Positions 11,983 through 35,089 of a DNA stretch of 64,000 nucleotides are shown in pieces. The stretch spans positions 103,991 to 167,990 of the IMG/VR virus record IMGVR_UViG_3300032287_002972; one strand, 5' to 3'. The translations under genes and the position numbers were made by a program. The stretch's first letter is position 1, and the number at the start of each line of letters is the position of its first letter. The stretch is from a virus. Under the pieces are notes generated by a model. That model did no database searches. It saw only the letters and a program-made list of their open reading frames with translations, and was not told the origin of the DNA.

Positions 11983-11983
11983 A

Positions 11984-18509: not shown

Positions 18510-19250
18510 TTATTTATTTAAAGTTAGTCTAATCTTTTTTTTACCTTTAGTTAATTCACTAATTTTTCTTCTTGTTTCTTCAGAATGTTTTTTACCTTTA
18601 GCAGATTCACTTAATTTTCTCTTATGTTCTTCTGAAAATATTTTACCTTTAGCAGCTTCACTCATTCTTCTTTTTGTTTCATCAGACATATTCTGTTTTG
18701 CTTCACTCATTCTTCTTTTCGTTTCTTCGGATATGTTCTGTTTAATTTCACACATCTTTTTTCTTGTTTCTTCAGAATGTTTTTTACCTATAAGGGACAA
18801 ACTTATATTTCTCTTATGTTCTTCTGAATGTAATTTACCTTTACGAGATTCACTCATGTTTCTCTTATGTTCTTCAGAAAATGGTTTACGAGAGTTAGAC
18901 TCCTTTTTACTTTCAGGTATGAGTCCAAATATTCTTCCAAACACTTTCCTATCCTCAATAGATTTTCTATTGTTAACAGATTTTATTATCTTATTAATTT
19001 CAAGAACATTTATATTTTCAGTTTCACTTAGAATGGTTTCAGGTATCCCCATTATAAAACATGAAGTATATAGATACATGTCTCTACATTCAACATGTAA
19101 ACTATTATAGGATTTTATTCCAATGTTATGATATTCTTTATATTCTACATCGAAAATATCTTTAATAATTCGTTTAGAAATACTTAATGAAATCACATAT
19201 TCATCCATTGTGGTATTAGATGAAAAATTCATACAATTTAATCCTTTCAT
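18510..19250 (-). CDS. NUMOD3-repeat DNA-binding protein
   Basis: About 6 repeats of (H)SEE(H/T)(K/R)R(K/N)(M/I)SE..KGK. Confidence 0.8.
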
Positions 19251-19453
19251 ATTAATGTGTTTTGTTTTATTTTGAAATGAAATTCTATTTGACTATATAG
19301 TTGGACACGTAATCTATCACGTGATTCAATAAAAAAATGAACACCTATTTGATTACGTACTTCATTATATAAATGAACACCTATTTGATTACGTACTTCA
19401 TTATATAATATATTAATTATTTGGTTACGTATTTGGTCACTAATTATCTTCAT
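19247..19453 (-). CDS. QVxx array protein
   Basis: array member. Confidence 0.7.
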
Positions 19454-19632
19454 ATGTTTTGTTTTACTTTAGTATATAGAGGTACGCGTACATCCATATG
19501 TATTTTAAGTTGTACATCATCATACACTTGGTCACGTACTCTACCAATCACTTGTCTTACAGCTTTTCTAAATAAATTTTCTAATATAGTTTCTTCTAAA
19601 CTATGGTTTATTTTTTCACTTATTGGTCTCAT
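19450..19632 (-). CDS. QVxx array protein
   Basis: array member. Confidence 0.7.
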   Translation of the reverse strand: MRPISEKINHSLEETILENLFRKAVRQVIGRVRDQVYDDVQLKIHMDVRVPLYTKVKQNI

Positions 19633-19649
19633 GTTAATATATTGTTTGG

Positions 19650-19853
19650 TTAATCATTTGAGGTTGATATATATATGTTATTACATAAATCATTATTTAC
19701 TTTAGATGTTACTTGGGTGCGTATTTCATTATATAATTGAACATTTATTTGTTTATGTAATTTAAAATTTACCTCTTGATGTATCCGATTATTTGTTTGG
19801 CCATATAATTTATTACTTATATGTCTACATATTTGTTTATGTGTCTTATTCAT
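19650..19853 (-). CDS. QVxx array protein
   Basis: array member. Confidence 0.7.
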   Translation of the reverse strand: MNKTHKQICRHISNKLYGQTNNRIHQEVNFKLHKQINVQLYNEIRTQVTSKVNNDLCNNIYISTSND

Positions 19854-19960
19854 ACATATTGTTTTAGTTGAAGGGTTATTCGTATAGTTACTTGACTATA
19901 TACGTTATTATGTAATTGAACATTTATTTGTTTACATACTTGATTACTTTCTGATTTCAT
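19850..19960 (-). CDS. QVxx array protein, 36 aa internally deleted copy of 20129-20311
   Basis: MKSESNQVCKQINVQLHNNVYSQVTIRITLQLKQYV, translated by hand. Confidence 0.65.
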   Translation of the reverse strand: MKSESNQVCKQINVQLHNNVYSQVTIRITLQLKQYV

Positions 19961-20132
19961 GAATAATATTATGTTTTAATTGAACATTTACCTCATCACT
20001 TATTTGTGCCCATAATTTATTACTTATTTGAAGATGTAGATGAACAATTACGTTATCAAATACATGTTTATTTAATTGACCACGTATTTGATTTAATAGT
20101 TGGTCACGTACTTGGTTATTTAGTGATTTCAT
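19944..20132 (-). CDS. QVxx array protein
   Basis: array member. Confidence 0.7.
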   Translation of the reverse strand: MKSLNNQVRDQLLNQIRGQLNKHVFDNVIVHLHLQISNKLWAQISDEVNVQLKHNIIHEIRK

Positions 20133-20311
20133 ATTAATCTATTTTGTTTTAGTTGAAGGGTTATTCGTATAGTTATTTGACTATATACGTTATTATGTAA
20201 TTGAACATTTATTTGTTTACGTACATTTATATGTACGTTAGACCTTACTCTCGCATTATTATGAACTTTTTCATTTATTTGTTTACATACTTGATTACTT
20301 ACTGATTTCAT
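20129..20311 (-). CDS. QVxx array protein
   Basis: array member. Confidence 0.7.
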   Translation of the reverse strand: MKSVSNQVCKQINEKVHNNARVRSNVHINVRKQINVQLHNNVYSQITIRITLQLKQNRLI

Positions 20312-20526
20312 ATTTTTTCCCTGAATTTAAATTCTATTTGATTACATACTTGACCATGTATTCGGTCACGACCAACGGGAAGTTTTTCCAGTATTTTATT
20401 ATATAATTTAGTACTTACTCTCGAAGGGATTTTTTTATACATTTCAATATAAAATATTTTAATAAAAAATAGAAAATATATTTTGTAATATACTTGTTTC
20501 ATGTGTTTTCTTATAGTTGTTCCCAT
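20308..20526 (-). CDS. QVxx array protein (start probably later)
   Basis: array member. Confidence 0.6.
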   Translation of the reverse strand: MGTTIRKHMKQVYYKIYFLFFIKIFYIEMYKKIPSRVSTKLYNKILEKLPVGRDRIHGQVCNQIEFKFREKI

Positions 20527-20735
20527 ACTTTATTACTTATTTGTAACCATATTTGACCCCATACTTGGCCACTTACTCGATTAGATACTTGACCACCTAC
20601 TTGTTCATATAATCCGTTATCTACATTATTATTTACTTGTTTATGTAGTTTCTTACGTATTTGATTAGATACCTGTTCATATACTTGGTTATCTACCGGT
20701 CCCATATTAATCTGTTTTGTTTTATTTGTTCCCAT
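20511..20735 (-). CDS. QVxx array protein (start probably later)
   Basis: array member. Confidence 0.65.
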   Translation of the reverse strand: MGTNKTKQINMGPVDNQVYEQVSNQIRKKLHKQVNNNVDNGLYEQVGGQVSNRVSGQVWGQIWLQISNKVWEQL

Positions 20736-20866
20736 ATTTGATTACTAACTCTAATACTTACTCCATCACGTACATCATTATTTACCTGTTTATATAATAG
20801 ATTATGTACTTGATGATTTAATTTAAAACATACTTGTTCATATATTTGGTTTCTTACTTTTTTCAT
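20693..20866 (-). CDS. QVxx array protein (57 aa, not in track)
   Basis: MKKVRNQIYEQV... Confidence 0.65.
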   Translation of the reverse strand: MKKVRNQIYEQVCFKLNHQVHNLLYKQVNNDVRDGVSIRVSNQIWEQIKQNRLIWDR

Positions 20867-21111
20867 ATTACTTTGTTTTGTTTATGTGGATTCGACAATT
20901 GTCTATGTAATTGGTCACTTAATTGTATCCATACTTGTCTATTTACTTGACCCCATATTTGTATTTGTAATTGGTTAGTTACTTGACCCCATATTTGTAT
21001 TTGTACTTGATGACGTACATTAGTATTTACTTGGTCATCAAGTACAAGACCAATTTGATTACGCATCTGAATACGTACTCGTTCATCAATTTTTTTACTT
21101 ACTGATTTCAT
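20863..21111 (-). CDS. QVxx array protein
   Basis: array member. Confidence 0.7.
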   Translation of the reverse strand: MKSVSKKIDERVRIQMRNQIGLVLDDQVNTNVRHQVQIQIWGQVTNQLQIQIWGQVNRQVWIQLSDQLHRQLSNPHKQNKVI

Positions 21112-21304
21112 ATGTTTCTACACTTACTTGGTCATATAATTTATCACTTATCTGATTACTTACTTGGTTATATATTTGTTCAAATGTTTCACCATTTACT
21201 TGATTACCTACTTCAGTATATACTTCACCATATACTTGAATATGAAATCTATTATTTACTTTATCCCATACTTGATTACATATTTTGTTATTTACTGTTT
21301 CCAT
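21095..21304 (-). CDS. QVxx array protein
   Basis: array member. Confidence 0.7.
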   Translation of the reverse strand: METVNNKICNQVWDKVNNRFHIQVYGEVYTEVGNQVNGETFEQIYNQVSNQISDKLYDQVSVETYEISK

Positions 21305-21504
21305 ATGTTTCGTTTTAATTGATTACTTGTTTGCGCACGTATTTGATTAAAAATCTCATAACCTATGTGGCCCATTATTTGTATCCATAATTGTTTATGG
21401 ATATGGTCATATACTTGTTTATCTAATCGACCACGTATATTATATGATACTATCTCACTTATATGAGAACTTACTGACCCCATTTTATTTTCTACTAAGT
21501 TCAT
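21292..21504 (-). CDS. QVxx array protein
   Basis: array member. Confidence 0.7.
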   Translation of the reverse strand: MNLVENKMGSVSSHISEIVSYNIRGRLDKQVYDHIHKQLWIQIMGHIGYEIFNQIRAQTSNQLKRNIWKQ

Positions 21505-21510
21505 ATTAAT

Positions 21511-21693
21511 CTACAATTGTTTTAACAATTCACTGTACATTTTATTCCATATTTGGTTAATTAGATGAAGACGTACTTGATTACCCACTTGATCAGATAC
21601 TTGAACACTTATTTTATCACGTACTTCAATATATGCCTGAACAACTATTTGGTTATGTATTTGTTTAGTCATTTTATTACTTACTGTTTTCAT
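21511..21693 (-). CDS. QVxx array protein
   Basis: array member. Confidence 0.7.
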   Translation of the reverse strand: MKTVSNKMTKQIHNQIVVQAYIEVRDKISVQVSDQVGNQVRLHLINQIWNKMYSELLKQL

Positions 21694-21901
21694 ATGTTTT
21701 TAGGTTTCTTACTTGATTTCTTACTTGGTACTTTAATTCACTATAATTTTGACCATATACTTGATTATCTACCGGTTCTCTAATTTGTTTACTTACTTGA
21801 CTATATATTTGGATACTCACTTGGTCCCATGCTCGATTATTCATTTTTAACCTCAATTGAGTATGTATTTCTTTACGTATTTTTTTTCTTACCGATTTCA
21901 T
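21677..21901 (-). CDS. QVxx array protein
   Basis: array member. Confidence 0.7.
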   Translation of the reverse strand: MKSVRKKIRKEIHTQLRLKMNNRAWDQVSIQIYSQVSKQIREPVDNQVYGQNYSELKYQVRNQVRNLKTYENSK

Positions 21902-22092
21902 ATCTTTCCAAATATTTGATTACTCATTTGTCCCCTTATTTGACTACTTACTTGATTATATACTTGAATAGTAATCTGATTACTTACTTTATCAACTACT
22001 TGGTCACATATTTTATTATTTACGTGACTATATATTTGGATAGTTAAATAATCACGTAATTGTGTCTGTTGATTAAACAATCTAATATTCAT
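21898..22092 (-). CDS. QVxx array protein
   Basis: array member. Confidence 0.7.
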   Translation of the reverse strand: MNIRLFNQQTQLRDYLTIQIYSHVNNKICDQVVDKVSNQITIQVYNQVSSQIRGQMSNQIFGKI

Positions 22093-22274
22093 ATGTTTAT
22101 TTTAGTTTGAAAACCTATTTGTCTACCACGTTCTTGCTCATATAGTTTATCATATACTTGGTCATATATTTTTTTATTTACTTGGTTAAATATTTGGTGA
22201 TATATTTTTTTATTTACTTGACTATATATTTGGATAATTAGTCCATCACGTAGTTGTGTCTGTCCCAGTTTCAT
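22089..22274 (-). CDS. QVxx array protein
   Basis: array member. Confidence 0.7.
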   Translation of the reverse strand: MKLGQTQLRDGLIIQIYSQVNKKIYHQIFNQVNKKIYDQVYDKLYEQERGRQIGFQTKINI

Positions 22275-22435
22275 AACGTTATGTTTTGTTCTATTTGGGA
22301 ATATAATTGATTACGTAATTGAATCCATATTTGTGAACGTAAATTAATATGAAAAGGTTCACTTAACTTATCCTGTATTTTATCATATACATGATAATAT
22401 ATGTGGTAATTAATATCTTTACTTACTTTTTTCAT
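22271..22435 (-). CDS. QVxx array protein (54 aa, not in track)
   Basis: MKKVSKDINY...EQNITL. Confidence 0.65.
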   Translation of the reverse strand: MKKVSKDINYHIYYHVYDKIQDKLSEPFHINLRSQIWIQLRNQLYSQIEQNITL

Positions 22436-22634
22436 AATGATTTATTCGTTCACTTACAATTTCATGTACTGGGTCGACAAATTGAATATCAACTTGTTCA
22501 TTTACTTTTTCGTACACTTCTCCAACGACTATGTTACATATATTAAACGGTACTTCAACTATCATTTGTGCATACATTTGGTCAAATACCCCACGAGATA
22601 TTTTATGATATACTTGTCCATCAATCGATTTCAT
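22419..22634 (-). CDS. QVxx array protein
   Basis: close paralogue of 28155. Confidence 0.7.
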   Translation of the reverse strand: MKSIDGQVYHKISRGVFDQMYAQMIVEVPFNICNIVVGEVYEKVNEQVDIQFVDPVHEIVSERINHYEKSK

Positions 22635-22849
22635 AATGTGTTCTGTTTTATTTCCTTATGTATTTGTACTTGTTCACGTACATTAGAAGATATTTGTACT
22701 TGAACTTGGTCACATATCTCATCATATATTTGGGTTTTTATTTGTTTAAATAATTGAATGTCCAATTGATTAAAAAACACCTCATCATTTAAACGTAAAC
22801 GTATATCAATACGAATTTGTTTACATATTTTATCTTTTACTGATTCCAT
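22631..22849 (-). CDS. QVxx array protein
   Basis: close paralogue of 28395. Confidence 0.7.
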   Translation of the reverse strand: MESVKDKICKQIRIDIRLRLNDEVFFNQLDIQLFKQIKTQIYDEICDQVQVQISSNVREQVQIHKEIKQNTL

Positions 22850-22854
22850 ATGTT

Positions 22855-23106
22855 TTAATTGAATATATAGTTGAGAAACCTATCAATTAAATCCCAAATT
22901 GGTGTCTTTTTTTTCCTTTGAAGTTCTACTTGAATAATAACTGGACTATTCATTTTACCACATACTTGACTCCATACTTGGCTACTCATTATCCTAACTA
23001 TATCATAACGTATATGGTTATATATGTGTCCATGTACTCGTTTATATAATTTATCACGTACTTGATTATCTACATGTTCAAGTATTTGTCCTCTTACTGA
23101 TTTCAT
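22855..23106 (-). CDS. QVxx array protein
   Basis: array member. Confidence 0.7.
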   Translation of the reverse strand: MKSVRGQILEHVDNQVRDKLYKRVHGHIYNHIRYDIVRIMSSQVWSQVCGKMNSPVIIQVELQRKKKTPIWDLIDRFLNYIFN

Positions 23107-23297
23107 ATCGTTTGTTTTATGTGAATATGTACTTGTTCAGATACTTGAGTTTCAACATTATCATATAACCCTTTACTTACTTGTTCACCTACTTGATAAT
23201 ATATATCATTATTCATTTTACTCCATACTTGGTTTTGTAATTGATTATGTACTTGATTACGTACTTGGTCATTTACAATATTTTTTACTTGTTTCAT
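23103..23297 (-). CDS. QVxx array protein
   Basis: array member. Confidence 0.7.
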   Translation of the reverse strand: MKQVKNIVNDQVRNQVHNQLQNQVWSKMNNDIYYQVGEQVSKGLYDNVETQVSEQVHIHIKQTI

Positions 23298-23539
23298 ATG
23301 TTTTCTTTAAATTGAGATTCCACATTTTCTAAAACTATATAAAATTGACCATATACCAACCCACTAATATATTTAAATATTTCAGAGTCTCTGAAATATA
23401 GATCACGTATAGAATATGTATGATGACCTATTTGGGGATATGATCTACTATTTATTAGACGAATTAATTCTTTATCTAATCGTTTGGTTATTTGTTCAGA
23501 TACTCCCTTCATATGTTTCTTTAACTTGCACTTCCACAT
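23294..23539 (-). CDS. QVxx array protein (divergent)
   Basis: array member. Confidence 0.6.
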   Translation of the reverse strand: MWKCKLKKHMKGVSEQITKRLDKELIRLINSRSYPQIGHHTYSIRDLYFRDSEIFKYISGLVYGQFYIVLENVESQFKENI

Positions 23540-23684
23540 TGTTTAATCGATTAATTACCATATCACTAATATGATTGTATAGTTTAATACGTGATTTATT
23601 ATACGCTTCTCTATGTGGTCCATATACTTCCTTACGTACAATTTTATATAATACAATACGTATTTCTTCACTAACTCGTTTCAT
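23496..23684 (-). CDS. QVxx array protein
   Basis: array member. Confidence 0.65.
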   Translation of the reverse strand: MKRVSEEIRIVLYKIVRKEVYGPHREAYNKSRIKLYNHISDMVINRLNNVEVQVKETYEGSI

Positions 23685-23851
23685 ATGTTTTGTTTTAGTT
23701 GTTTAGTTACTTGTTCACGTAATTGATTATCAATTTGACCCCATACTATATTATACATTTGATAACGTACTTCGTCACTTACTGTGCAATATATTCGACC
23801 ATTTATTTGTCCACATAATCTTTCATATACTTCATGATTTATTATCCTCAT
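23681..23851 (-). CDS. QVxx array protein (56 aa, not in track)
   Basis: MRIINHEVYE...KQLKQNI. Confidence 0.65.
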   Translation of the reverse strand: MRIINHEVYERLCGQINGRIYCTVSDEVRYQMYNIVWGQIDNQLREQVTKQLKQNI

Positions 23852-24060
23852 AGTACAATGTAGTCTTTTAGTTGATTATTTATTTGTTCCTGTATTTTAA
23901 GAATCGTACCTACAAATATTTGTTCATTTACTATTTCATATATTTCACTAGACACTTGCTCACTTAATCGGTAACGTACTTGTTCCTTTGTTTGCTCACG
24001 TAATTTACCATGTAATTTATAATATACTTGTTTACTTACTTGTTCACGTACTATCCTCAT
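23848..24060 (-). CDS. QVxx array protein
   Basis: array member. Confidence 0.7.
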   Translation of the reverse strand: MRIVREQVSKQVYYKLHGKLREQTKEQVRYRLSEQVSSEIYEIVNEQIFVGTILKIQEQINNQLKDYIVL

Positions 24061-24257
24061 AATGACATGTTTTGTTTTAGTTGATTAGTTATGTGTTTAT
24101 ACAATTCATCAAATATATCATCACGTAATTGATAGTGTATTTGATTAAGTACTTGTTCACTTGTAAAAATATGTACCTGTAGATATATTTTATCAGGTAC
24201 TTTTTTATACACTTGTTTACATACTTGGTTACTTACTTGAGTGTATATTGTCCTCAT
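24057..24257 (-). CDS. QVxx array protein
   Basis: array member. Confidence 0.7.
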   Translation of the reverse strand: MRTIYTQVSNQVCKQVYKKVPDKIYLQVHIFTSEQVLNQIHYQLRDDIFDELYKHITNQLKQNMSL

Positions 24258-24454
24258 GGTATAACGTTTTCTTCTACTTGGAAACTCATTTGTCTATATA
24301 CTTGTTGACTTACTTGTTCATTTACTCGACTACTTACTTGTTCATTTACTTGTTCATTTACTCGGTTACTTACTTGTTCATTTACTTGTTCACGTAATTG
24401 GTCACGCACTTGTGAACATACTTGGTTACTTACTTGAGTGTATATTAATTTCAT
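24254..24454 (-). CDS. QVxx array protein (purest tetrad repeat)
   Basis: QVSN QVCS QVRD QLRE QVNE QVSN RVNE QVNE QVSS... Confidence 0.75.
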   Translation of the reverse strand: MKLIYTQVSNQVCSQVRDQLREQVNEQVSNRVNEQVNEQVSSRVNEQVSQQVYRQMSFQVEENVIP

Positions 24455-24510
24455 AATACTACGTATTGTTTTAGTTGATTACTTACTTGTTCATTTACTT
24501 GGTCACGTAA
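24451..24510 (-). pseudogene. 3' remnant of an array gene (RDQVNEQVSNQLKQYVVL*)
   Basis: No start codon; matches the 3' end of 24698-24886. Confidence 0.6.
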
Positions 24511-24701
24511 ACGTTTTGTTCTACTTTGAAACTCAGTTGTCCATATACTGGTTGACTTACTTGTTCCCATATTTCATTATTTACTTTTTCCCATACTTCA
24601 TCATGTACTTGTTCATTTACTTGTTCACGTACTTTTCCATATACTTCTTCACGTACTTGTTTACATACTTGGTTACTTACTTGAGTGTATATTAATTTCA
24701 T
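24495..24701 (-). CDS. QVxx array protein
   Basis: array member. Confidence 0.7.
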   Translation of the reverse strand: MKLIYTQVSNQVCKQVREEVYGKVREQVNEQVHDEVWEKVNNEIWEQVSQPVYGQLSFKVEQNVYVTK

Positions 24702-24886
24702 AATACTACGTATTGTTTTAGTTGATTACTTATTTGTTCATTTACTTTTCCATATACTTGTTCACGTACTTGTGCGTGGTAATATAACCGAGATGGTTTA
24801 CGTACTTGTTCACGCACTTTGATATATAATTGTTCATGTACTTGATCATATATTTGTCTACGTATTTGTTCACGTACTATTCTCAT
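24698..24886 (-). CDS. QVxx array protein
   Basis: array member. Confidence 0.7.
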   Translation of the reverse strand: MRIVREQIRRQIYDQVHEQLYIKVREQVRKPSRLYYHAQVREQVYGKVNEQISNQLKQYVVL

Positions 24887-25125
24887 AACGATATGTTTTG
24901 TTTTAGTTGATTACCTATTTGTTCCTGTACTTGATCACGTATTGGACCCCATATATTATCATATAATTGTTTATGTATATGAATACGTATTTGGGTATGT
25001 ACTTGTTCACGTAACTTACGATGTAATTTATAATATATTTTAGACCATATTTCAGTCTGTACTTGGTTACATGATTGATGATATATTATCCACATAATAA
25101 AATGTTTTGTTTTAGTTGAAAACAT
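24883..25125 (-). CDS. QVxx array protein
   Basis: array member. Confidence 0.65.
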   Translation of the reverse strand: MFSTKTKHFIMWIIYHQSCNQVQTEIWSKIYYKLHRKLREQVHTQIRIHIHKQLYDNIWGPIRDQVQEQIGNQLKQNISL

Positions 25126-25292
25126 ATTTGTTCAAGTATTTGTTCACGTATTTGAACAAATACTTCATCACATACTTTGTCATTTACTTGTTCATATACT
25201 TGACCTGATATTTGTTTACCTAATTGGTTACGTGCTTGATCCCATATTTTATTAGTTACTTGTTTACTTATTTGAACGTATACTGATTTCAT
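25086..25292 (-). CDS. QVxx array protein
   Basis: array member. Confidence 0.7.
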   Translation of the reverse strand: MKSVYVQISKQVTNKIWDQARNQLGKQISGQVYEQVNDKVCDEVFVQIREQILEQICFQLKQNILLCG

Positions 25293-25489
25293 AATGTAAT
25301 GTTTTGTTTTAGTTGATTACTTACTTGTTCATTTACTTGGAAATATAAATGTTCACGTACTTGTTCATTCACTTCGTCACGTAATTGTTCACATACCTGA
25401 GACCATACCTGAGACCATACCTCAACATCTATTTGGTTACGTACTTTAATACGTATCTTTTCATTTACTTCTTTATATACTAATTTCAT
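25289..25489 (-). CDS. QVxx array protein
   Basis: array member. Confidence 0.7.
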   Translation of the reverse strand: MKLVYKEVNEKIRIKVRNQIDVEVWSQVWSQVCEQLRDEVNEQVREHLYFQVNEQVSNQLKQNITL

Positions 25490-25710
25490 ATTGAAATGTT
25501 TTCATTTATTTGGGTACATATTTGTTCACGTACCATTCTCGTAATTGTTGGGGTACTTAATCGCCTAAACACTTGATCCCATAGTAAAAAATGACGTACA
25601 TTATTATTTACTTGTTCACGTAATTCACTATGTAATTTATAATATACTACACGATATATTTGAGCACTTGCACTTGTTTGATTAAGTAAATGGTTACTTA
25701 CTGATTTCAT
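25486..25710 (-). CDS. QVxx array protein
   Basis: array member. Confidence 0.7.
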   Translation of the reverse strand: MKSVSNHLLNQTSASAQIYRVVYYKLHSELREQVNNNVRHFLLWDQVFRRLSTPTITRMVREQICTQINENISI

Positions 25711-25955
25711 ATTGTGATGTTTTGTTTTAGTTGACGTGTCATTTTTTTAGATATACGAACCAATACTTGGTCATATATTTGATTACATACTGAGACATAT
25801 GTTTTGTTAGGTAATTGGGTAGAGTTTCTCTTACCTATTTTACCATATACTTGTCTACGTACTTGGACTTGTAATTGAGTATGTATTTGTTCATTTACTT
25901 GATTATACACATGTCTACGTACTTCGTCACGTACTTGAATATATACTGTTTTCAT
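25707..25955 (-). CDS. QVxx array protein
   Basis: start MKTVYIQV at the ATGA overlap. Confidence 0.65.
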   Translation of the reverse strand: MKTVYIQVRDEVRRHVYNQVNEQIHTQLQVQVRRQVYGKIGKRNSTQLPNKTYVSVCNQIYDQVLVRISKKMTRQLKQNITI

Positions 25956-26140
25956 ATTGAAACGTTTTCTTTTATTTGGAGTGTCATTTGTCCACTTACT
26001 TGATTCCATATTCTTTCAAGTATATGATCACATACATGTCCACGTACTTCATACCACATTTGTTTACGTATTTCTTCATGTAGTTGTTCCTCCACTCGAT
26101 TAAATAGTTGTTTACGTACTTGCATAGATATTGACTTCAT
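25952..26140 (-). CDS. QVxx array protein
   Basis: array member. Confidence 0.7.
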   Translation of the reverse strand: MKSISMQVRKQLFNRVEEQLHEEIRKQMWYEVRGHVCDHILERIWNQVSGQMTLQIKENVSI

Positions 26141-26144
26141 ATAT

Positions 26145-26327
26145 TTAAATGTTTTGTTTTATTTGGAGTGTCATTTGTCTATATACCTGACCCAATATTA
26201 TATTACGTAAGTGAACAGTTACTTTCTCACTCGCTTGATTAAGTAAATGGTTACTTATTTGGGCATATAATTGATTATGTACTTGTTTATGTACTTGTTT
26301 AAATACTTGGTTATGTATTTGTTTCAT
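26145..26327 (-). CDS. QVxx array protein
   Basis: array member. Confidence 0.7.
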   Translation of the reverse strand: MKQIHNQVFKQVHKQVHNQLYAQISNHLLNQASEKVTVHLRNIILGQVYRQMTLQIKQNI

Positions 26328-26497
26328 ATTGAGATATTTTCTTTTAGTTTAACACTAATTTGTCTACGTACTTGAGTATGTATAGTTTGTACTTGAATAC
26401 TGACATGATTAAATACTTTAGTACTTACATGGTTAAATACTTGATTACTTAGACCCAAATATACAACTTCGAATTTTTGATTACACATCGAATTCAT
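26324..26497 (-). CDS. QVxx array protein (57 aa, not in track)
   Basis: MNSMCNQKF...LKENISI. Confidence 0.6.
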   Translation of the reverse strand: MNSMCNQKFEVVYLGLSNQVFNHVSTKVFNHVSIQVQTIHTQVRRQISVKLKENISI

Positions 26498-26506
26498 ATT
26501 GATGAC

Positions 26507-26689
26507 TTATTTGATTTCGTAATTATATAAAACCTTTATAATCGTTTGATCACGACCTACTGGGTATTTTACATTATCGTACAATTGGTTAAGTACTATG
26601 TTTATTACGGTACCATGCACTTGACCATATGCTGGATTATATATTTTATGGAATATCTGAGTACGAATTTGTTCATGCACTAATTTCAT
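26507..26689 (-). CDS. QVxx array protein
   Basis: array member. Confidence 0.65.
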   Translation of the reverse strand: MKLVHEQIRTQIFHKIYNPAYGQVHGTVINIVLNQLYDNVKYPVGRDQTIIKVLYNYEIK

Positions 26690-26865: not shown

Positions 26866-27062
26866 ATAATTATATGGTTATGAACATGTCTAAGTAATTG
26901 ACTAAACACTTGAAAATGTATATAGTCACGCACATCACCATATACATTATTATATAATTGAATATGTACTTGTTTAGATATTTGACAACGTAATTTATAA
27001 TGTATATTATTACGTAATCGATCATTTATATGAGTACGTATTTGGTTATTAACCCTTTTCAT
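26862..27062 (-). CDS. QVxx array protein
   Basis: array member. Confidence 0.7.
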   Translation of the reverse strand: MKRVNNQIRTHINDRLRNNIHYKLRCQISKQVHIQLYNNVYGDVRDYIHFQVFSQLLRHVHNHIII

Positions 27063-27274
27063 ATCAGTATCTTTTTTATGTGGAAAACTAATCCTATTTC
27101 TCTACGTACTTGGCCACGTACTTGAAATAAAAAAAAACTACGACGGTAATCACTTACATGGTCACTCACTCGGTTACGTACTTCTTCACTCACTTCGCCA
27201 CGTAATTGCTCACGTAACCGGTTACGTAACTGGTTAAGTATTTGTTCATTTACTTGTGTGTATGTTGATTTCAT
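27059..27274 (-). CDS. QVxx array protein
   Basis: array member. Confidence 0.7.
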   Translation of the reverse strand: MKSTYTQVNEQILNQLRNRLREQLRGEVSEEVRNRVSDHVSDYRRSFFLFQVRGQVRREIGLVFHIKKILI

Positions 27275-27468
27275 GATATTTCTTCTGATACTTGATAACG
27301 TACTTTATCGTACATTTGTCGAAATATTTGAGTATATACTTGAAAACGTATTTGCTTAATTATTTCTACATGTATTGGTATATTTGTACACGCACTCAAT
27401 TCACCATATATTTTATTATTTACTTGGTTACATACATGAGTACGTATTTGTTTATCGACCGATATCAT
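27271..27468 (-). CDS. QVxx array protein
   Basis: array member. Confidence 0.7.
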   Translation of the reverse strand: MISVDKQIRTHVCNQVNNKIYGELSACTNIPIHVEIIKQIRFQVYTQIFRQMYDKVRYQVSEEIS

Positions 27469-27469
27469 A

Positions 27470-27700
27470 TCAGTATGTTTTTTTTATGTGAAAAACTAAA
27501 CCTTTTACGTATTGATAACGTACTTTATCGTACACTTGTTCACGTATTTGAAAAGATACTTGAAAACGTATTTGAAAAGATACTTGAAAACGTACTTCGC
27601 TAAGTATTTTGTTATATATTTGACTCTCTACTTGATTATACAGTTTGTCACGTATATCAAAACCAATATCATAAGTAATTTTATCACTTACTGATTTCAT
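27470..27700 (-). CDS. QVxx array protein
   Basis: internal RFQVSFQI duplication. Confidence 0.7.
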   Translation of the reverse strand: MKSVSDKITYDIGFDIRDKLYNQVESQIYNKILSEVRFQVSFQIRFQVSFQIREQVYDKVRYQYVKGLVFHIKKTY

Positions 27701-27855
27701 AATATGTTTCGTTTTACTTCGAGATATACTTGTTGAAATATTTTGTCATATACTTTATGATATACTTCGTCACGTAATTTATTACGTAATTTACCATATA
27801 CTATACCAACACGGTATTCTATTTGAGTATTAATATGATTACCAACCTGTTTCAT
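27697..27855 (-). CDS. QVxx array protein (52 aa, not in track)
   Basis: MKQVGNHINTQ... Confidence 0.65.
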   Translation of the reverse strand: MKQVGNHINTQIEYRVGIVYGKLRNKLRDEVYHKVYDKIFQQVYLEVKRNIL

Positions 27856-28013
27856 AATATCTCCTGTTTTATTTGAGAATATATTAAATTACGGATTTCA
27901 TTCCATATTTTAAAACGTAATTTAATATGTAATTGTTCACTTAACTTATCATGTACTTTACCATACATGTGAGAATCTAATCGAGTGTTAATATAATCAC
28001 TTACTGATTTCAT
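27852..28013 (-). CDS. QVxx array protein (53 aa, not in track)
   Basis: MKSVSDYINTRLD... Confidence 0.65.
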   Translation of the reverse strand: MKSVSDYINTRLDSHMYGKVHDKLSEQLHIKLRFKIWNEIRNLIYSQIKQEIL

Positions 28014-28171
28014 AACGTGTTTTGTTTTATTTGTTTATAAATTTGTATTTGTACTTGATTCCATATTTGATCACGTACCTTGTTATTCACTTGGTGAATT
28101 AACTTATCATGTTTTAAAACATATAAAAAACCATCTAATCGAGTGTTAATGTGATTACTTAATTTTTTCAT
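28010..28171 (-). CDS. QVxx array protein (53 aa, not in track)
   Basis: MKKLSNHINTRLD...KQNTL. Confidence 0.65.
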   Translation of the reverse strand: MKKLSNHINTRLDGFLYVLKHDKLIHQVNNKVRDQIWNQVQIQIYKQIKQNTL

Positions 28172-28373
28172 ATTGATTTATATATTTTTCCATTACGATT
28201 TCACGTACAGGATCAACCAATTGAATATCCACTTGTTCATTTACATTATCGTACAGTTGTTCAACTACTTGGTTACATATTTTAAAATGTATTTGTAATA
28301 TCATTCGTACATACATTTCGTCATATACCCTACCGGATATTTTATCGTACACTTGTTTGTCAACCGATTTCAT
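28155..28373 (-). CDS. QVxx array protein
   Basis: array member. Confidence 0.7.
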   Translation of the reverse strand: MKSVDKQVYDKISGRVYDEMYVRMILQIHFKICNQVVEQLYDNVNEQVDIQLVDPVREIVMEKYINQYEKIK

Positions 28374-28394
28374 AATAAGTTTTGTTTTAGTCGA

Positions 28395-28625
28395 TTACCT
28401 AATGATACGTAATAAGTCAGGAACACGTAATTGAATACTCGTTTTATATGTGTTGTTTTTTATTTCCCTATATATCTGTACTTGCACTTGATTACGCATC
28501 TCATGATATATTTTGGTTTTTATTTGTTTAAATGGTTGAACATCAAATTGATTAAAAAAAACATCATCATGTAAACGTATATCGTGACGAATTTGTTTAT
28601 AAATCTTATCTTTTACAGGATTCAT
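28395..28625 (-). CDS. QVxx array protein (frameshifted C-terminus)
   Basis: array member. Confidence 0.65.
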   Translation of the reverse strand: MNPVKDKIYKQIRHDIRLHDDVFFNQFDVQPFKQIKTKIYHEMRNQVQVQIYREIKNNTYKTSIQLRVPDLLRIIR

Positions 28626-28821
28626 ATGTTTCTGTTTGTTTTATTACTTCAATATATACTTGAGCATGTAATTGACTAAATACTTGTAGACGTATCTGTT
28701 CATGAACTATATTACCCATATACATATATACTTTCTGACTCACTCGATTATATATTTTCTCGTCCCCTATGTTACGTACTTTATATACTCGACGTGAAAT
28801 TCTATCTTTTACCGAATTCAT
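28606..28821 (-). CDS. QVxx array protein
   Basis: array member. Confidence 0.7.
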   Translation of the reverse strand: MNSVKDRISRRVYKVRNIGDEKIYNRVSQKVYMYMGNIVHEQIRLQVFSQLHAQVYIEVIKQTETYESCKR

Positions 28822-29023
28822 GTGTACGTCTTTTATTACGTAATAAAGAAGAAATTACCTGAATATATATTGTAATCTCCACTTGACGAAGCATTAAAAC
28901 ACGTATTTGGTTCTCTACTTGATATTCTATTGAACTATCCACTTGTCTCCGTATTTGGTTATACAGTTTGTCACGTATATGAAAACGGATTTTATTACCA
29001 ATGTTATCACTTAGTGCTTTCAT
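28802..29023 (-). CDS. QVxx array protein
   Basis: array member. Confidence 0.7.
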   Translation of the reverse strand: MKALSDNIGNKIRFHIRDKLYNQIRRQVDSSIEYQVENQIRVLMLRQVEITIYIQVISSLLRNKRRTHEFGKR

Positions 29024-29232
29024 ATTGAAATGTTTTGTTCTACGTTCCTAAATACTTGTCTATATGTTTGTAGACGAGATTCTCTTTCTATTTCTTCATT
29101 CATATGGTCAAACAATTCTTGTGATATTTCGTCACCAACACTATCCTGTATTTGATTTAAGAATTTATCACGTACTTGATAACTTATTTGGTGACTTAGT
29201 TTTACATAATTTTTTTTACATACTGATTTCAT
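29020..29232 (-). CDS. QVxx array protein
   Basis: array member. Confidence 0.7.
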   Translation of the reverse strand: MKSVCKKNYVKLSHQISYQVRDKFLNQIQDSVGDEISQELFDHMNEEIERESRLQTYRQVFRNVEQNISI

Positions 29233-29417
29233 ATGGATATATTTTGTTTTAGTGGTAAAGTCATTTGACTAAATAGTTGATTATCTATTATACTATATAG
29301 TTTTTCAGACACATTATTACTTACTTGTCGAGATACATTACCCTGTATTTCTTCAATCATTTGATCCCATACTTTTTGTATTGGTGATTCAAGAGTTTTT
29401 TTATTCACTCCATTCAT
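29229..29417 (-). CDS. QVxx array protein
   Basis: array member. Confidence 0.7.
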   Translation of the reverse strand: MNGVNKKTLESPIQKVWDQMIEEIQGNVSRQVSNNVSEKLYSIIDNQLFSQMTLPLKQNISI

Positions 29418-29419
29418 AT

Positions 29420-29506
29420 CTATCCGTTTCGTCTTATTTGAGAATTTACTTGGGTGATTACTTGGTCATGTATTTTTCTTAATGGTTTACTATATGTTGA
29501 TTTCAT
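29420..29506 (-). pseudogene. truncated array member (28 aa)
   Basis: MKSTYSKPLRKIHDQVITQVNSQIRRNG*. Confidence 0.5.
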
Positions 29507-29745
29507 AAAAAAAATCTATAAGACGATAAATCAGTTACACATACTTGGTTCAGTACTTGACGAAACACTTGTTCATATACTTGACCCGACATTTCTTCAC
29601 CTACTTGTTTACGTACTTGTTCACTTACTTCAAGTTTTACTTTATCACATATTTGGTTACTTACTTGATTAGTTACTCTACGACCTATTCTATTTTTTAT
29701 TTTAAGATTTACTAATTTCATATGTTTTGTTTTGTCTGATTCCAT
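29503..29745 (-). CDS. QVxx array protein
   Basis: array member. Confidence 0.65.
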   Translation of the reverse strand: MESDKTKHMKLVNLKIKNRIGRRVTNQVSNQICDKVKLEVSEQVRKQVGEEMSGQVYEQVFRQVLNQVCVTDLSSYRFFL

Positions 29746-29906
29746 ACTTGTTCACTCACTTGTTCGAACACCTCACGATATATTTGACCGTATGACTGTG
29801 TAACTACTTTCTCACATGCACGTATACGTACTTCATAATACATGTCATTATGTAATATTTTATGTAATGGATTAATAACTTGGTCACTCACTGGTTTCAT
29901 ATACAT
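29718..29906 (-). CDS. QVxx array protein
   Basis: array member. Confidence 0.7.
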   Translation of the reverse strand: MYMKPVSDQVINPLHKILHNDMYYEVRIRACEKVVTQSYGQIYREVFEQVSEQVWNQTKQNI

Positions 29907-30111
29907 AAAAATATGTGTTTAATTTTAATTGGTTAGTTACTTGTTCCTGTACTTGGTCATTTATTTCATCATATACTTTTCTAATTACTTGAAAATTTAC
30001 ATCAACATCTATATGGTCATGTAGTTTTTCGTTTAGTTTATCAAGTACTTTCTCACTAATTTCTTTATTTGCTAAATTCATATAAATTTTTTTTATGGTC
30101 ACGTACTTCAT
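29884..30111 (-). CDS. QVxx array protein
   Basis: array member. Confidence 0.65.
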   Translation of the reverse strand: MKYVTIKKIYMNLANKEISEKVLDKLNEKLHDHIDVDVNFQVIRKVYDEINDQVQEQVTNQLKLNTYFYVYETSE

Positions 30112-30316
30112 TACTTACCTTAAAAAATATTTGACCCCACACTTGGTCAAGTATTTTATTACGTACCTGATTATGTACTTGGTCATATAATTGAATACAT
30201 ACTTGTTCAGATGTTTGAACCTCTACCTTACATATATAATCACGTACTTTTTCATATACTTGGACACGTACATGTTTACATACTTCGTTATGTAGTTGGT
30301 GACTTAATGGTTTCAT
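30065..30316 (-). CDS. QVxx array protein
   Basis: array member. Confidence 0.7.
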   Translation of the reverse strand: MKPLSHQLHNEVCKHVRVQVYEKVRDYICKVEVQTSEQVCIQLYDQVHNQVRNKILDQVWGQIFFKVSNEVRDHKKNLYEFSK

Positions 30317-30608
30317 ATATGTATGTTTTACTTATTTGGGATCGTAATTGATTACGTAAATGTTCATATATATTAGTACGTGGTCCCATATATATGTTAT
30401 CACGTAAATTATTATTTACTCGACCACATACTTTAGTGAACACTTCATCATGTAATTGGTTACGTACATCAATATGCGTTGTATAACCTATTTCTTTCCA
30501 TAATTGTTCATATACTCGATTAATTATGTGATAATATGTTTGTTCAGATATTCGATCACGTACCGATTTCATATGATTGGTTATGTATTTGAATACGTAG
30601 ATTATCAC
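30288..30608 (-). CDS. QVxx array protein (start probably MKSVRDR)
   Basis: array member. Confidence 0.65.
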   Translation of the reverse strand: MIIYVFKYITNHMKSVRDRISEQTYYHIINRVYEQLWKEIGYTTHIDVRNQLHDEVFTKVCGRVNNNLRDNIYMGPRTNIYEHLRNQLRSQISKTYIYETIKSPTT

Positions 30609-30741
30609 GTATTTGTTGATGTGTTTCTAAACTATACCTTCGATGTAATCTATTCCATACTAAATAATCCATTTTGAAAAATATTTTATTAAGTACCTGT
30701 TCACGTACTTTAGTATTTATTCGATCACGTACCGATTTCAT
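30556..30741 (-). CDS. QVxx array protein
   Basis: array member. Confidence 0.7.
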   Translation of the reverse strand: MKSVRDRINTKVREQVLNKIFFKMDYLVWNRLHRRYSLETHQQIRDNLRIQIHNQSYEIGT

Positions 30742-30959
30742 ATCGATTGGTTTTTATACATCTTACGTACATCATACCATAATCGATTAGTTATTTGGTC
30801 ATATACTTGATTATACACTTCATTACATATTCGAACTCGGATTCGACTATTCACTTGATTCCATACATTAGTACGTAATTCTTTACCTAATGATTCTTCT
30901 AATGTATCAACAATTTCATCACGTACTCGATTATACATCAATAGACTTACTGATTTCAT
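30738..30959 (-). CDS. QVxx array protein
   Basis: first gene after the internal promoter. Confidence 0.75.
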   Translation of the reverse strand: MKSVSLLMYNRVRDEIVDTLEESLGKELRTNVWNQVNSRIRVRICNEVYNQVYDQITNRLWYDVRKMYKNQSI

Positions 30960-30984
30960 ATTAAAATGTTTTTTTTTATTATCA

Positions 30985-31016
30985 CAAATGTAATAATAAA
31001 ATCTTAATTATCCAAA
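30985..31016 (-). promoter_or_regulatory. Bacteroidota-type promoter inside the array
   Basis: minus strand TTTG-N20-TACATTTG. Confidence 0.75.
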
Positions 31017-31032
31017 CTTATTTTTTTTAATT

Positions 31033-31263
31033 TTACAAATGATGTATTGATATGTTTTGTAGTATATTAGTATGTAATTGAACTTCAGTTTGTTTAATTA
31101 AAATTTGGTTTAGTTTGTCATATACTTTTCTACGTACTTGGTCGTCTATTTGAATATCCGATAGAGTACGTGAGTGTTCATCCATGTTTTCGGTCAATTG
31201 GTCATTCAATCGTTCCCATATTTTACTAACATGTTTAAGTAGTTGTTCGTTCACTGTTTTCAT
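31033..31263 (-). CDS. QVxx array protein
   Basis: array member. Confidence 0.7.
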   Translation of the reverse strand: MKTVNEQLLKHVSKIWERLNDQLTENMDEHSRTLSDIQIDDQVRRKVYDKLNQILIKQTEVQLHTNILQNISIHHL

Positions 31264-31480
31264 TTGATATACTTTGTTTTACAATAGATATTTGTCCCCA
31301 TATTTGTTTACGTATTCTATCACGTATTCTGTCGTATAGTTGATCTTCCACTTTGTCATTTATTTGGTCATATAACCTATCACGTATTTGTCTAAATATA
31401 TTATCATGTAGTTTAATATCGACCCGTTTATCTATTCGATTATACACTTGGTCGTATATTACTTTACTCACCGATTTCAT
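31235..31480 (-). CDS. QVxx array protein
   Basis: array member. Confidence 0.7.
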   Translation of the reverse strand: MKSVSKVIYDQVYNRIDKRVDIKLHDNIFRQIRDRLYDQINDKVEDQLYDRIRDRIRKQIWGQISIVKQSISNENSERTTT

Positions 31481-31653
31481 AATTTTATGTTTTCCTTTAC
31501 AGTGTTACTTATTCTGTCAGTTGATCGAAACCACATTTTTTTCGATACTTGATTCCACACATGAGTATATAATTGATTAGCCAATTTATTATATACGTCA
31601 TTAGTTAGTTTATCAATTATCATATCACTTATTTTAATATTTACTCGTTTCAT
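31477..31653 (-). CDS. QVxx array protein (58 aa, not in track; near-duplicate of the 31853 gene)
   Basis: MKRVNIKISDMIIDKLTN...ENIKL. Confidence 0.7.
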   Translation of the reverse strand: MKRVNIKISDMIIDKLTNDVYNKLANQLYTHVWNQVSKKMWFRSTDRISNTVKENIKL

Positions 31654-33770: not shown

Positions 33771-33940
33771 TTTATTTGACGAAATATTTGGTTGTGTAAT
33801 TGGTTATTTATACATATAGTAATATTATTTTCTACATGTATACATACAACAAAAGGCACATGTTTGTTTACAATTGAAATGAGTGGTTTCTGTACTTCAC
33901 TCCATATGATTCTTTGAGGTACTTCTAAAGATGTTATCAT
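33752..33940 (-). CDS. array protein (divergent)
   Basis: first gene after promoter. Confidence 0.6.
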   Translation of the reverse strand: MITSLEVPQRIIWSEVQKPLISIVNKHVPFVVCIHVENNITICINNQLHNQIFRQIKWNLKV

Positions 33941-33963
33941 GATATATTATCGTTTTGTTAAGA

Positions 33964-33995
33964 CAAAGATAGGTCGAATGTTTCACATAACCAAA
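33964..33995 (-). promoter_or_regulatory. Bacteroidota-type promoter inside the array
   Basis: minus strand TTTG-N20-TATCTTTG. Confidence 0.8.
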
Positions 33996-34013
33996 TTAAT
34001 AACTTGAACCTTA

Positions 34014-34214
34014 TCATTTTTTTTGTTGTTCATTCTTAATTTGGTCAAGTATGGGTCTATATAATTGTTCACTTACTTGGGTATTCACGTAAATATGTAC
34101 ATCAGAAACTAACTTACCTTGTATCCTTATAGAGACACTATTAAACAAATCCTCATATATTTTGTGACGTATAGAACTAATATCTTTACGTAGTGATTCG
34201 TTAAAGTTCTTCAT
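34014..34214 (-). CDS. array protein
   Basis: array member. Confidence 0.65.
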   Translation of the reverse strand: MKNFNESLRKDISSIRHKIYEDLFNSVSIRIQGKLVSDVHIYVNTQVSEQLYRPILDQIKNEQQKK

Positions 34215-34282
34215 AATGTTTTATTTACAACCATATTAATAATAACTTGGTTACGTATTTGATTATACAATAAATGATATGA

Positions 34283-34471
34283 CTAATCTTCTTTTTCATA
34301 TTCTTTATATAATGAAACAAGAGATAAATTATAATTCCTATTAGGGATAAATAATTTAGTCTGAATAGTGTCTCTTACATGATAATTAACATTAGAACAT
34401 ATCGCTTTACTGTGAATATACATTATTTTATTCACCAAAATGTCGCTAATTATTTTTTGAAAATTATTCAT
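34283..34471 (-). CDS. array protein (divergent)
   Basis: array member. Confidence 0.6.
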   Translation of the reverse strand: MNNFQKIISDILVNKIMYIHSKAICSNVNYHVRDTIQTKLFIPNRNYNLSLVSLYKEYEKED

Positions 34472-34476
34472 ATTAT

Positions 34477-34713
34477 TTATGGTTTAATATTTTTTAACGA
34501 ATAAATATTTTCACTTTCAACCTTATTTGGGTAAATATTATTCACATCTTTCCATACTGTGTCCATATGTATACTCACGTCAATCATTACATCATTACAA
34601 ACTTTTTCTCTAGATAATAAAATAATATCAGATAGAAATTTATGCATCTTGTTATCAATAACCTTCTCAATCTTTTTCATTTTTTTATCAATCTTGTTTA
34701 TAACACTTTTCAT
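34477..34713 (-). CDS. array protein (divergent)
   Basis: array member. Confidence 0.6.
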   Translation of the reverse strand: MKSVINKIDKKMKKIEKVIDNKMHKFLSDIILLSREKVCNDVMIDVSIHMDTVWKDVNNIYPNKVESENIYSLKNIKP

Positions 34714-34898
34714 GGTTTAACATTTTGTTTTACTTGAACATATGATTTATCACTAACCTGTTCAAATACTTCTCCATGAATATCATCATATATTTGTGTA
34801 TGTAATTTATCAGAAAATTTCTTATCTAATAATTTATGTATATGTCTATACACACTTTTAATTAACCGATTACGTATTTTAGTTCTCAAATTCTTCAT
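34710..34898 (-). CDS. array protein
   Basis: array member. Confidence 0.65.
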   Translation of the reverse strand: MKNLRTKIRNRLIKSVYRHIHKLLDKKFSDKLHTQIYDDIHGEVFEQVSDKSYVQVKQNVKP

Positions 34899-35089
34899 CG
34901 TTCATATTTTTTTCTAAATTTAATATCATAATAAACTCTATTCTTAGTTAAATTGGATATGCTATTAATCACAGTTTTATTATTCACTTTATTATAGATT
35001 TTACTACCCACAGTTTCAAAAAATTCTGCATGGTTAGGTTTAATTTTAAGTCCGATGATATCTGATATTTTAATTCTTATATTATTCAT
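34895..35089 (-). CDS. array protein (divergent)
   Basis: array member. Confidence 0.6.
   Translation of the reverse strand: MNNIRIKISDIIGLKIKPNHAEFFETVGSKIYNKVNNKTVINSISNLTKNRVYYDIKFRKKYER

Follow-up and report, generated by a model that had tools for sequence, protein, structure and literature searches.

A run of 81 very small genes built on a four-residue repeat raises the question of where such genes come from and what their products do. The genes form a 16-kb array in a 64,000-nucleotide stretch of viral DNA, referred to here as the window, which comprises bases 103991–167990 of the 167,990-bp IMG/VR virus record IMGVR_UViG_3300032287_002972 (G+C 27.5%; CheckV completeness ~50%); coordinates are window positions unless another record is named. 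The record encodes a T4-type major capsid protein (Gp23), a T4-type portal, a T4-type large terminase, a tail sheath, and a family-B DNA polymerase, and the phage is therefore a large uncultured T4-like myophage. Its long open reading frames (ORFs) end mostly in TAA (TAA 91, TGA 17, TAG 6), indicating that the standard code applies. Shine-Dalgarno motifs are found at 9 of 114 phage genes, and positions -14 to -8 ahead of the starts are A-rich. The Bacteroidota-type promoter motif TTTG-N17-21-TAnnTTTG occurs at 23 sites in the window (5.2 expected), an excess suggesting that the host is probably a member of the Bacteroidota. The explanation favored here, with a probability of about 0.55, is that the array encodes a library of single-helix proteins, ~80 in number and each translated separately, which would be a free-standing version of the tetrad-repeat helix of DUF6745 proteins and would dock on a repeat-less DUF6745-like protein (the core) encoded nearby.

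The microgene array and its reading frames

The array consists of 81 non-nested ATG ORFs of 28–100 amino acids (aa; mean 66.4, median 66) that tile the minus strand (Table 1), in keeping with the roughly 80 consecutive same-strand mini-genes reported in a first-pass annotation made from the sequence alone. A family profile built from 24 of these units matches 77 of the 81 at E ≤ 1e-3. The four non-matching units sit at the promoter-proximal end, where the first few units (35089–33573) are the most diverged, while the most regular and youngest-looking units lie at ~23.7–26.4 kb. Joining by ATGA overlaps, which had been described as usual, is seen as a 4-nucleotide (nt) overlap at 43 of the 80 junctions; a further six junctions have a 17-nt overlap that corresponds to a 1-nt slip of the ATGA junction, and gaps of 68–73 nt occur only three times. 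The units end in TGA (53), TAA (22), or TAG (6), unlike the long ORFs of the phage, in which TAA predominates. The conserved unit ends proposed by the first-pass annotation are only partly general, as Met-Lys starts (50/81) and Val at residue 4 (42/81) are common, while the KQN-type C-terminus is present in 27 units (about a third) and is degenerate in the rest. A single giant ORF that is recoded or frameshifted was considered and is ruled out by the standard code and by the rotation of frame between successive units, which excludes read-through or recoding into one protein.

The array makes up 9.4% of the record, and perhaps 5% of the whole genome. Within the 168-kb record the family is found in the array and on the minus strand only. 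ORFs on the opposite strand (19400–31600, plus strand; up to 103 aa; YLxxYLxx) neither tile nor match the family profile, and are by-products of the stop-poor, periodic 12-nt codon design. The microproteins are basic, with a median isoelectric point (pI) of 9.6 and 63 of the 81 above pI 8. Scans of the units against Pfam returned sub-threshold, chance-like matches only, a scan against PHROGs returned only a weak match to phrog_36210 (function unknown), and tblastn against 50,697 GenBank phage records returned no match.

The tetrad periodicity claimed for these ORFs is borne out by the recurrence of V/I/L and Q at lags of 4, 8, 12, and 16 residues, at 2.0–3.4 times expectation, with depletion at the remaining lags; most ORFs keep the phase almost from end to end. 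Across 715 tetrads, designated a-b-c-d, position a is R/Y/S/N/H/W, b is N/E/D/K/G, c is Q in 47% of cases (otherwise K/E/R), and d is V/I/L in 83%, which agrees with the earlier description of a conserved scaffold (c and d) with variable intervening positions (a and b). At the DNA level the tetrad has the codon design NNT-RAN-CAA-NTA, and Tandem Repeats Finder detects many 12-, 24-, and 36-nt tandem runs in the array. Codon usage is skewed relative to the genome (CGT is 49% of Arg codons vs 11%, GTA 71% of Val codons vs 34%, and ATA 68% of Ile codons vs 41%), and the third codon positions of the tetrads are near-constant while the first and second positions have diverged. This skew marks the tetrads as recent copies of each other, with third positions that follow ancestry rather than the codon preference of the phage. 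Mutagenesis of the type carried out by diversity-generating retroelements (DGRs) was rejected as the source of the variation, since nucleotide positions 5, 8, 9, and 12 of the tetrad are conserved adenines (60–81% A), contrary to adenine-confined variability; no RVT_1 (reverse transcriptase) match was found in the 168-kb record, which is ~50% complete.

Because codons of the NNT-RAN-CAA-NTA design seldom mutate to stops, open frames alone prove little, and the units were therefore compared with the raw DNA of three related contigs, ignoring the ORF calls of the relatives. Among 42 full-length gapless units with 283 differences, no in-frame stops were found in the relatives, as opposed to ~7.1 expected (Poisson P ~8e-4). 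The ratio of nonsynonymous to synonymous substitution (dN/dS, or omega) for shared units is 0.57 (L032, 28 units), 0.64 (L029), and 0.52 (L031), with third positions changing most, and the L032 set contains 59 synonymous differences vs ~39 under neutrality (chi-square ~12.7). Truncated or frame-slipped units are few (e.g. 28, 54, and 78), and frame-slipping indels fall mostly near unit ends. Comparisons among paralogues give a pooled dN/dS of ~2, and 9 for unit 53 vs unit 55; these values are not taken as positive selection, because the tetrads of different units share a third-position consensus without being positionally homologous. A non-coding or decaying minisatellite, the outcome against which the first-pass annotation had proposed a check of stop frequency and dN/dS, is ruled out by the absence of stops, and the frames are under genuine but mild protein-level constraint. 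The array is thus very probably real and selected as coding.

Probable origin from the internal repeat of DUF6745 proteins

A profile of 24 units was searched against 1.84 billion representative proteins and matched 2770 of them, with a best E-value of 1e-56. The best matches contain three to seven matched stretches each, which are internal repeats of proteins of 350–600 aa, and 58 of the best 60 of the 2770 carry the Pfam family DUF6745 (PF20530). The window itself encodes a DUF6745-like protein, P0023, 1.5 kb upstream of the array (Table 1). It scores 25.4 bits for PF20530 over profile positions 28–138, just short of the gathering cut-off of 27; homologues at 88–89% identity are recorded with PF20530, and more distant full-length relatives that contain the repeat score up to 99.7 bits for DUF6745. 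Longer homologues of the core (P0043, P0045, P0048, P0052, P0089, and P0111) have long runs of xxQV tetrads after the motif SP-x-ACQ, and the number of repeats in DUF6745 proteins is highly variable, from ~10 to more than 100 tetrads. Residues 1–76 and 77–317 of P0023 align to residues 1–80 and 214–454 of P0043 with 61% identity, such that the extra ~137 residues of xxQV tetrads in P0043 fall between residues 76 and 77 of P0023. Comparison of the unit profile with the P0043 repeat by hhalign gives a probability of 97.6%, a value to be read with the caution that similarity between periodic repeats can be partly compositional. Core homologues of 62–94% identity are, among those listed, 316–323 aa long and repeat-less, and those whose contigs were read adjoin arrays.

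The profile matches and the alignment of the P0043 insert suggest that the array units are, in all likelihood, a free-standing form of the repeat that the core has lost. Both forms share the four-residue register and the residue classes (a aromatic/Arg/Gly/Ser; b Asp/Asn/Glu; c Gln; d Val), as well as a genomic partner of ~125–130 aa. In contrast to the DUF6745 repeat, which lies inside a polypeptide between N-terminal helices and the DUF6745 domain, the units are separate ORFs of ~12–14 tetrads, each with its own Met-Lys start and stop; hence they are better described as a detached form than as an architectural member of the family. No mention of DUF6745 was found in the literature searched, nor was any paper on an internal repeat of a protein re-encoded as dozens of separate microgenes. 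The assertion that no phage gene family expanded to this degree had been described likewise met no contradiction in the literature searched.

Searching with the unit profile also identified small homologues in other metagenomes, and the contigs that encode them hold syntenic arrays. Such arrays, with strongly differing unit content, are present in at least eight related metagenomic phages; L029 and L030 contain 66 and 55 profile hits, respectively, and further arrays are found in L031, L032, L037, and L038, while eight IMG/VR loci (L042–L049) have 11–25 hits within 10 kb. The synteny search proposed earlier was thus carried out, with syntenic arrays in L029, L030, L037, and L038 and core-linked arrays in L042–L049. 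The gene order in the former four is the 317-aa gene, the 129-aa gene (the partner), two or three small genes, and the array; in L044, L046, and L047 the array instead comes first, upstream of the 317-aa gene. A NUMOD3 gene breaks up the array in L029 and L030, and an HNH gene does so in L037 and L038. Genes of the homing-endonuclease type are located at or in the arrays at L029 16150–16797 and 17226–17597, L037 13231–13584, and L038 6155–6508 and 11269–12216; L038 has an extra 315-aa gene in addition to the HNH gene.

The flanking genes and the units have very different histories. Between the window and L029, the proportion of synonymous differences (pS) is 0.67 for the core (omega 0.04) and 0.44 for the partner (omega 0.03), which amounts to saturation at synonymous sites, whereas units common to both are 91–100% identical with a pS of ~0.04. 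The omega of the core reflects strong purifying selection. Highly similar units between saturated flanks indicate that units were exchanged recently and that the array acts as a store of recombining cassettes. It contains perfect 24- and 36-nt tandem duplications inside units, a duplicated three-unit block (22269–22855 vs 28008–28631), and register-shifted tandem copies at 23.7–25.5 kb.

The linkage between core and array was examined in 28 IMG/VR loci found with the core alignment. Arrays, defined as at least 11 microgenes within 10 kb, are present at 10 of 17 repeat-less cores and at none of 11 repeat-bearing cores, a contrast that is suggestive only, as the ten array loci fall into about two lineages. 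L033 and L034 similarly contain a repeat-bearing core and a partner gene with no microgenes. In the HK97-type phage L034 (JGI 3300025318), the DUF6745 homologue is 550 aa long with ~65 tetrads and, together with its partner, lies at 2421–4484, between the large terminase and portal genes; the terminase-portal interval is a classic slot for accessory ('moron') genes. The second array lineage, comprising L054 and L055, has a 360-aa core. At L054 10571–14455 (IMGVR_UViG_3300021225_000468), ~21 overlapping microgenes built on an x-Ser-Glu-Leu tetrad, starting MxNIRxEL and ending REINSMI, are located between the repeat-less 360-aa DUF6745-like core and a 124-aa partner. Furthermore, a PolA/DnaB-type phage (L041 5314–7994; ENA ERZ23496912 scaffold_23) has ~14 overlapping genes of 57–74 aa directly upstream of a repeat-less 335-aa DUF6745-like gene; these small genes are not tetrad-like, start ME-I/R-I, have a recurring LW, and give one weak hit to the family profile.

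An obligatory pairing of repeat-less core and array is not supported. Seven of the 17 repeat-less IMG/VR cores have no array (0–2 profile hits) in the flanks that were fetched, and the same is true of L035; specifically, there are no hits in the fetched flanks of L035, L060, L061, L066, and L069, and one or two only at L056, L057, and L059. Either the pairing is not obligatory or the arrays of these phages lie elsewhere.

Predicted docking and alternative explanations

Structure prediction offers a view of how a detached helix could be used. The AlphaFold2 model of a unit is a single helix (residues 2–65) with a predicted local distance difference test score (pLDDT) of 96, so that the helical nature ascribed to the mini-gene products stands as a prediction. 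The core is modelled with a pLDDT of 91 and a predicted template modelling score of 0.79, and comprises an N-terminal helical part and a C-terminal α/β part; the site of the repeat insertion is a surface loop following helix 64–75. No related fold was identified for the core by Foldseek against the PDB at E ≤ 0.001, and the best Z-score of 5.9 over 77 residues from a wide VIA-align search is within noise for helical models. When core and unit are co-folded, the interface score ipSAE (interaction prediction score from aligned errors) is 0.75 (runs 0.74–0.77), as opposed to 0.00 for the best of three controls. For calibration, 58 of 80 solved complexes reach this mark, as do 2 of 110 mismatched pairs; the calibration holds only roughly, since own alignments were used here. 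Partner pLDDT in the co-fold does not fall below 83, and 95% or more of the contacts are shared between runs. The predicted interface involves core residues 3–27, 47–53, 64–75, 80–120, and 129–136, so that residues flanking the insertion point on either side are included. Every c and d residue of the unit is listed as a contact, and the 17 residues with no listed contact are at b (13) and a (4). The model supports, as a prediction, docking of the mini-helix on the DUF6745-like core.

Taken together, these findings suggest a scheme in which the DUF6745-like core gene lost its insertion in this phage lineage and the repeat persists as microgenes. These would multiply by unequal crossing-over at the conserved junctions, change length by 12-nt slippage, and be exchanged between related phages as cassettes. 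Transcription would start from Bacteroidota-type promoters inside and upstream of the array, and translation would proceed by termination-reinitiation at the ATGA overlaps, with the A-rich LKQNI codons at each C-terminus acting as a start region, free of Shine-Dalgarno motifs, for the cistron that follows. The helices would each dock on the N-terminal helical half of the core, beside the site of the lost insertion, with c and d (and mostly a) facing the core and b facing outward. With this orientation, one conserved pair of core and partner could carry many alternative surfaces or lengths, and a likely use would be tuning or recognition in phage-host conflict, for example in counter-defence. 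A role in conflict or counter-defence is a tentative suggestion made by analogy with mycobacteriophage Tweety gp54 (see below), counter-defence being the only role established for a comparable tetrapeptide-repeat protein of a phage. The first-pass annotation had proposed decoys or inhibitors, or else specificity modules; the repeat-less core just upstream and the detached repeat favor specificity modules that work with the core over free decoys.

Several observations weigh against this scheme. The contrast between repeat-less and repeat-bearing cores rests on about two lineages, whose member loci are not independent, and array-less cores exist. The free units are basic, while the internal DUF6745 repeats that were read look aspartate-rich by eye. 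There is one core gene for 81 helices, and a strong terminator lies between the core and partner genes and the array, whose expression is predicted from sequence motifs. The co-fold may replay memorized intramolecular packing of repeat-bearing DUF6745 proteins. DUF6745 itself has no known function or fold relative, which leaves counter-defence as an argument from analogy.

Some of these observations would fit microproteins that are expressed and act independently of the core, either by imitating or competing with the DUF6745 repeat helix, for instance to decoy a host factor that senses or binds it, or as basic helices that bind nucleic acid or host proteins. The charge of the units, the array's own promoter motifs on the far side of the terminator, a stoichiometry that is odd for simple 1:1 docking, and the repeat-less cores with no array nearby are all compatible with independent action. 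This alternative is considered unlikely. In each lineage seen, the arrays are closely linked to the core, whether they precede it, follow it, or separate it from the partner; no array accompanies a core that has kept its internal repeat; and the unit passes the co-fold while the controls score zero. Less probable again is a runaway, essentially selfish amplification by unequal crossing-over, in which frames would stay open through the NNT, RAN, CAA, NTA design and the products would be functionless. Third codon positions that follow ancestry fit a recent amplification, the array shows clear slippage and block duplications, truncation or frame slippage affects several units (e.g. 28, 54, and 78, and those with 17-nt overlaps), and a dN/dS of 0.5–0.65 reflects mild constraint only. 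This ratio is nevertheless below 1, and the lack of stops where ~7.1 were expected, the size of the array and its retention in at least eight related phages with synonymously saturated flanks, the recurrence of the same architecture with a different tetrad in a second lineage, and the preservation of an ATG and an A-rich start context at every junction argue against functionless products.

The cassette-like exchange between phages, in which shared units differ so little between such divergent flanks, also brings to mind silent pilin or surface-antigen cassettes, such that units would be untranslated donors for recombination into an expression site such as the core gene. The conserved junctions could be recombination sites, and genes of the homing-endonuclease type occur in or at the arrays. 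It is, however, very improbable that the units are only donors: each has its own ATG, A-rich start region, and stop, in-frame stops are avoided, no occupied expression site was seen (the listed core homologues of 62–94% identity are all repeat-less), and the unit ends show no likeness, by eye, to the core around residues 76/77. A library of detached repeat helices docking on the core is retained as the best overall explanation.

The closest studied precedent is gp54 of mycobacteriophage Tweety, which contains 48 Ala-Ala-x-x tetrapeptides encoded by a 12-bp unit; its third codon positions are invariant, and the first and second vary. Related phages differ in the number of repeats, which changes readily, and such changes tune counter-defence against the prophage Phrann gp29/gp30 system (PMC2884959, PMC9262239). 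The array resembles gp54 in its 12-bp unit, near-invariant third and variable first and second codon positions, and the changing number of repeats in a phage accessory gene. In gp54, however, the Ala-Ala-x-x repeat lies inside one protein, between N- and C-terminal domains, and there is no array of microgenes. Homology was sought and rejected, as gp54 has no Pfam family and hhalign gives a probability of 0.2% against the core alignment. Since the proteins are unrelated and the Tweety repeat is within one protein, the counter-defence reading of the array is an analogy, not evidence. Expansion of multigene families under conflict is known for other viruses, including the 'genomic accordions' of poxviruses and the paralogue arrays of giant viruses, in which tandem amplification is followed by divergence and copy number differs between close relatives. 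In those cases the amplified unit is an entire ordinary gene, and copy number usually stays between a few and some tens, whereas here a piece of an internal repeat has become 81 probably translationally coupled microgenes beside a repeat-less protein, an exceptional scale.

If docking on the core is correct, the array would represent a new viral way to diversify a protein surface, in which a conserved core is supplied with a heritable, recombining library of plug-in helices, in contrast to the mutation of one gene by DGRs or by slippage of the Tweety gp54 type. It would also provide a first handle on the function of DUF6745, a widespread uncharacterized family in phages and bacteria. A ready-made mutational series for studies of binding and specificity is available in the 81 natural variants and the related units of other phages. 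A speculative extension is combinatorial recognition, in which the conserved core and partner would be armed by any of ~80 co-expressed, exchanged helices, perhaps with several of them rebuilding a long repeat. Such a system would be a standing repertoire of surfaces or lengths to set against diverse Bacteroidota defence or surface proteins, a germline-encoded 'repertoire' strategy that is not described for viruses of bacteria.

Neighboring genes, expression signals, and other features of the phage

The features of the locus are collected in Table 1. The partner gene follows the core in repeat-bearing and repeat-less phages alike; its product has no Pfam or PHROG family, and its Atlas clusters contain only virus 'hypothetical proteins'. 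The hairpin that directly follows the partner gene would part the core-partner unit from transcripts entering the array. Of the three small genes between the partner and the array, the 85-aa gene encodes a membrane protein with an MtN3/PQ-loop-like hit, and counterparts in related contigs encode proteins of 110/90, 149, and 73 aa (the 73-aa one only in L029).

Table 1. Positions of the array and of neighboring features in the window
Feature	Position	Strand	Basis
Array of 81 tiling microgenes (28–100 aa), a-b-Q-[VIL] tetrads	19247..35089	-	ORF tiling, periodicity, profile matches
DUF6745-like core gene P0023, 317 aa, no internal tetrad repeat	36591..37544	-	Pfam, homologue alignment, omega 0.04 vs L029
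Partner gene P0024, 129 aa, virus-only family, no known domain	36176..36565	-	omega 0.03
Intrinsic-terminator-like hairpin, 11 pairs then T run, directly after partner gene	36134..36158	-	
Three syntenic small genes between partner and array: 115 aa (K/E-rich), 149 aa, 85 aa	35094..36109	-	
Bacteroidota-type promoter motif (TTTG ... TATCTTTG), 73-nt gap between units 5 and 6	33964..33995	-	
Bacteroidota-type promoter motif (TTTG ... TACATTTG), 73-nt gap between units 20 and 21	30985..31016	-	
Last cistron, 246 aa, six NUMOD3 motifs (homing-endonuclease DNA-binding module), ATGA overlap with unit 81	18510..19250	-	

The two internal promoters of host type that had been claimed are present as motifs, and occupy two of the three 68–73-nt gaps of the array. 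The only terminator-like site on the array strand between 30985 and the end of the NUMOD3 gene is a weak 6-pair hairpin at 30150–30131, and up to ~60 cistrons thus follow one promoter motif without a terminator-like site of more than six pairs. A scan for sigma-70 promoters was uninformative (142 sites vs 166 in shuffles). The array junction sequence CTAAAACAAAACAT reproduces the A-rich start context, free of Shine-Dalgarno motifs, that is typical of the phage, and this context is kept with the ATG at all array junctions. Because the codons at unit ends (L-K-Q-N-I) form the A-rich stretch ahead of the next start, conservation of the C-terminus may partly serve translation of the next cistron. 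Judged by these motifs, the array would take translational coupling to an extreme in a system that lacks Shine-Dalgarno motifs. In the last cistron, the NUMOD3 motifs are fused to an N-terminal part that matches a separate 123-aa gene in relatives.

Other features of the phage were noted outside the array. A promoter-type motif (TTTGGTTATATG...TTTTATCTTTG) is present in 15 near-identical copies on the plus strand at 414–14007, each followed by a small gene; these copies, of the same type as the two motifs in the array, probably mark early-gene cassettes. A tRNA-like gene with a 4-base anticodon (agat), to which no amino acid is assignable, was predicted by ARAGORN at 14669–14746 on the plus strand. 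The SNF2-type helicase of the phage, which lies outside the window (G000:C1:5419-8271), has LAGLIDADG and Hint matches in what appears to be an intein-like insertion. Finally, the thymidylate synthase encoded at 50238–51317 on the minus strand is 359 aa long while its Pfam match spans a 266-position profile, suggesting an insertion of ~90 residues.

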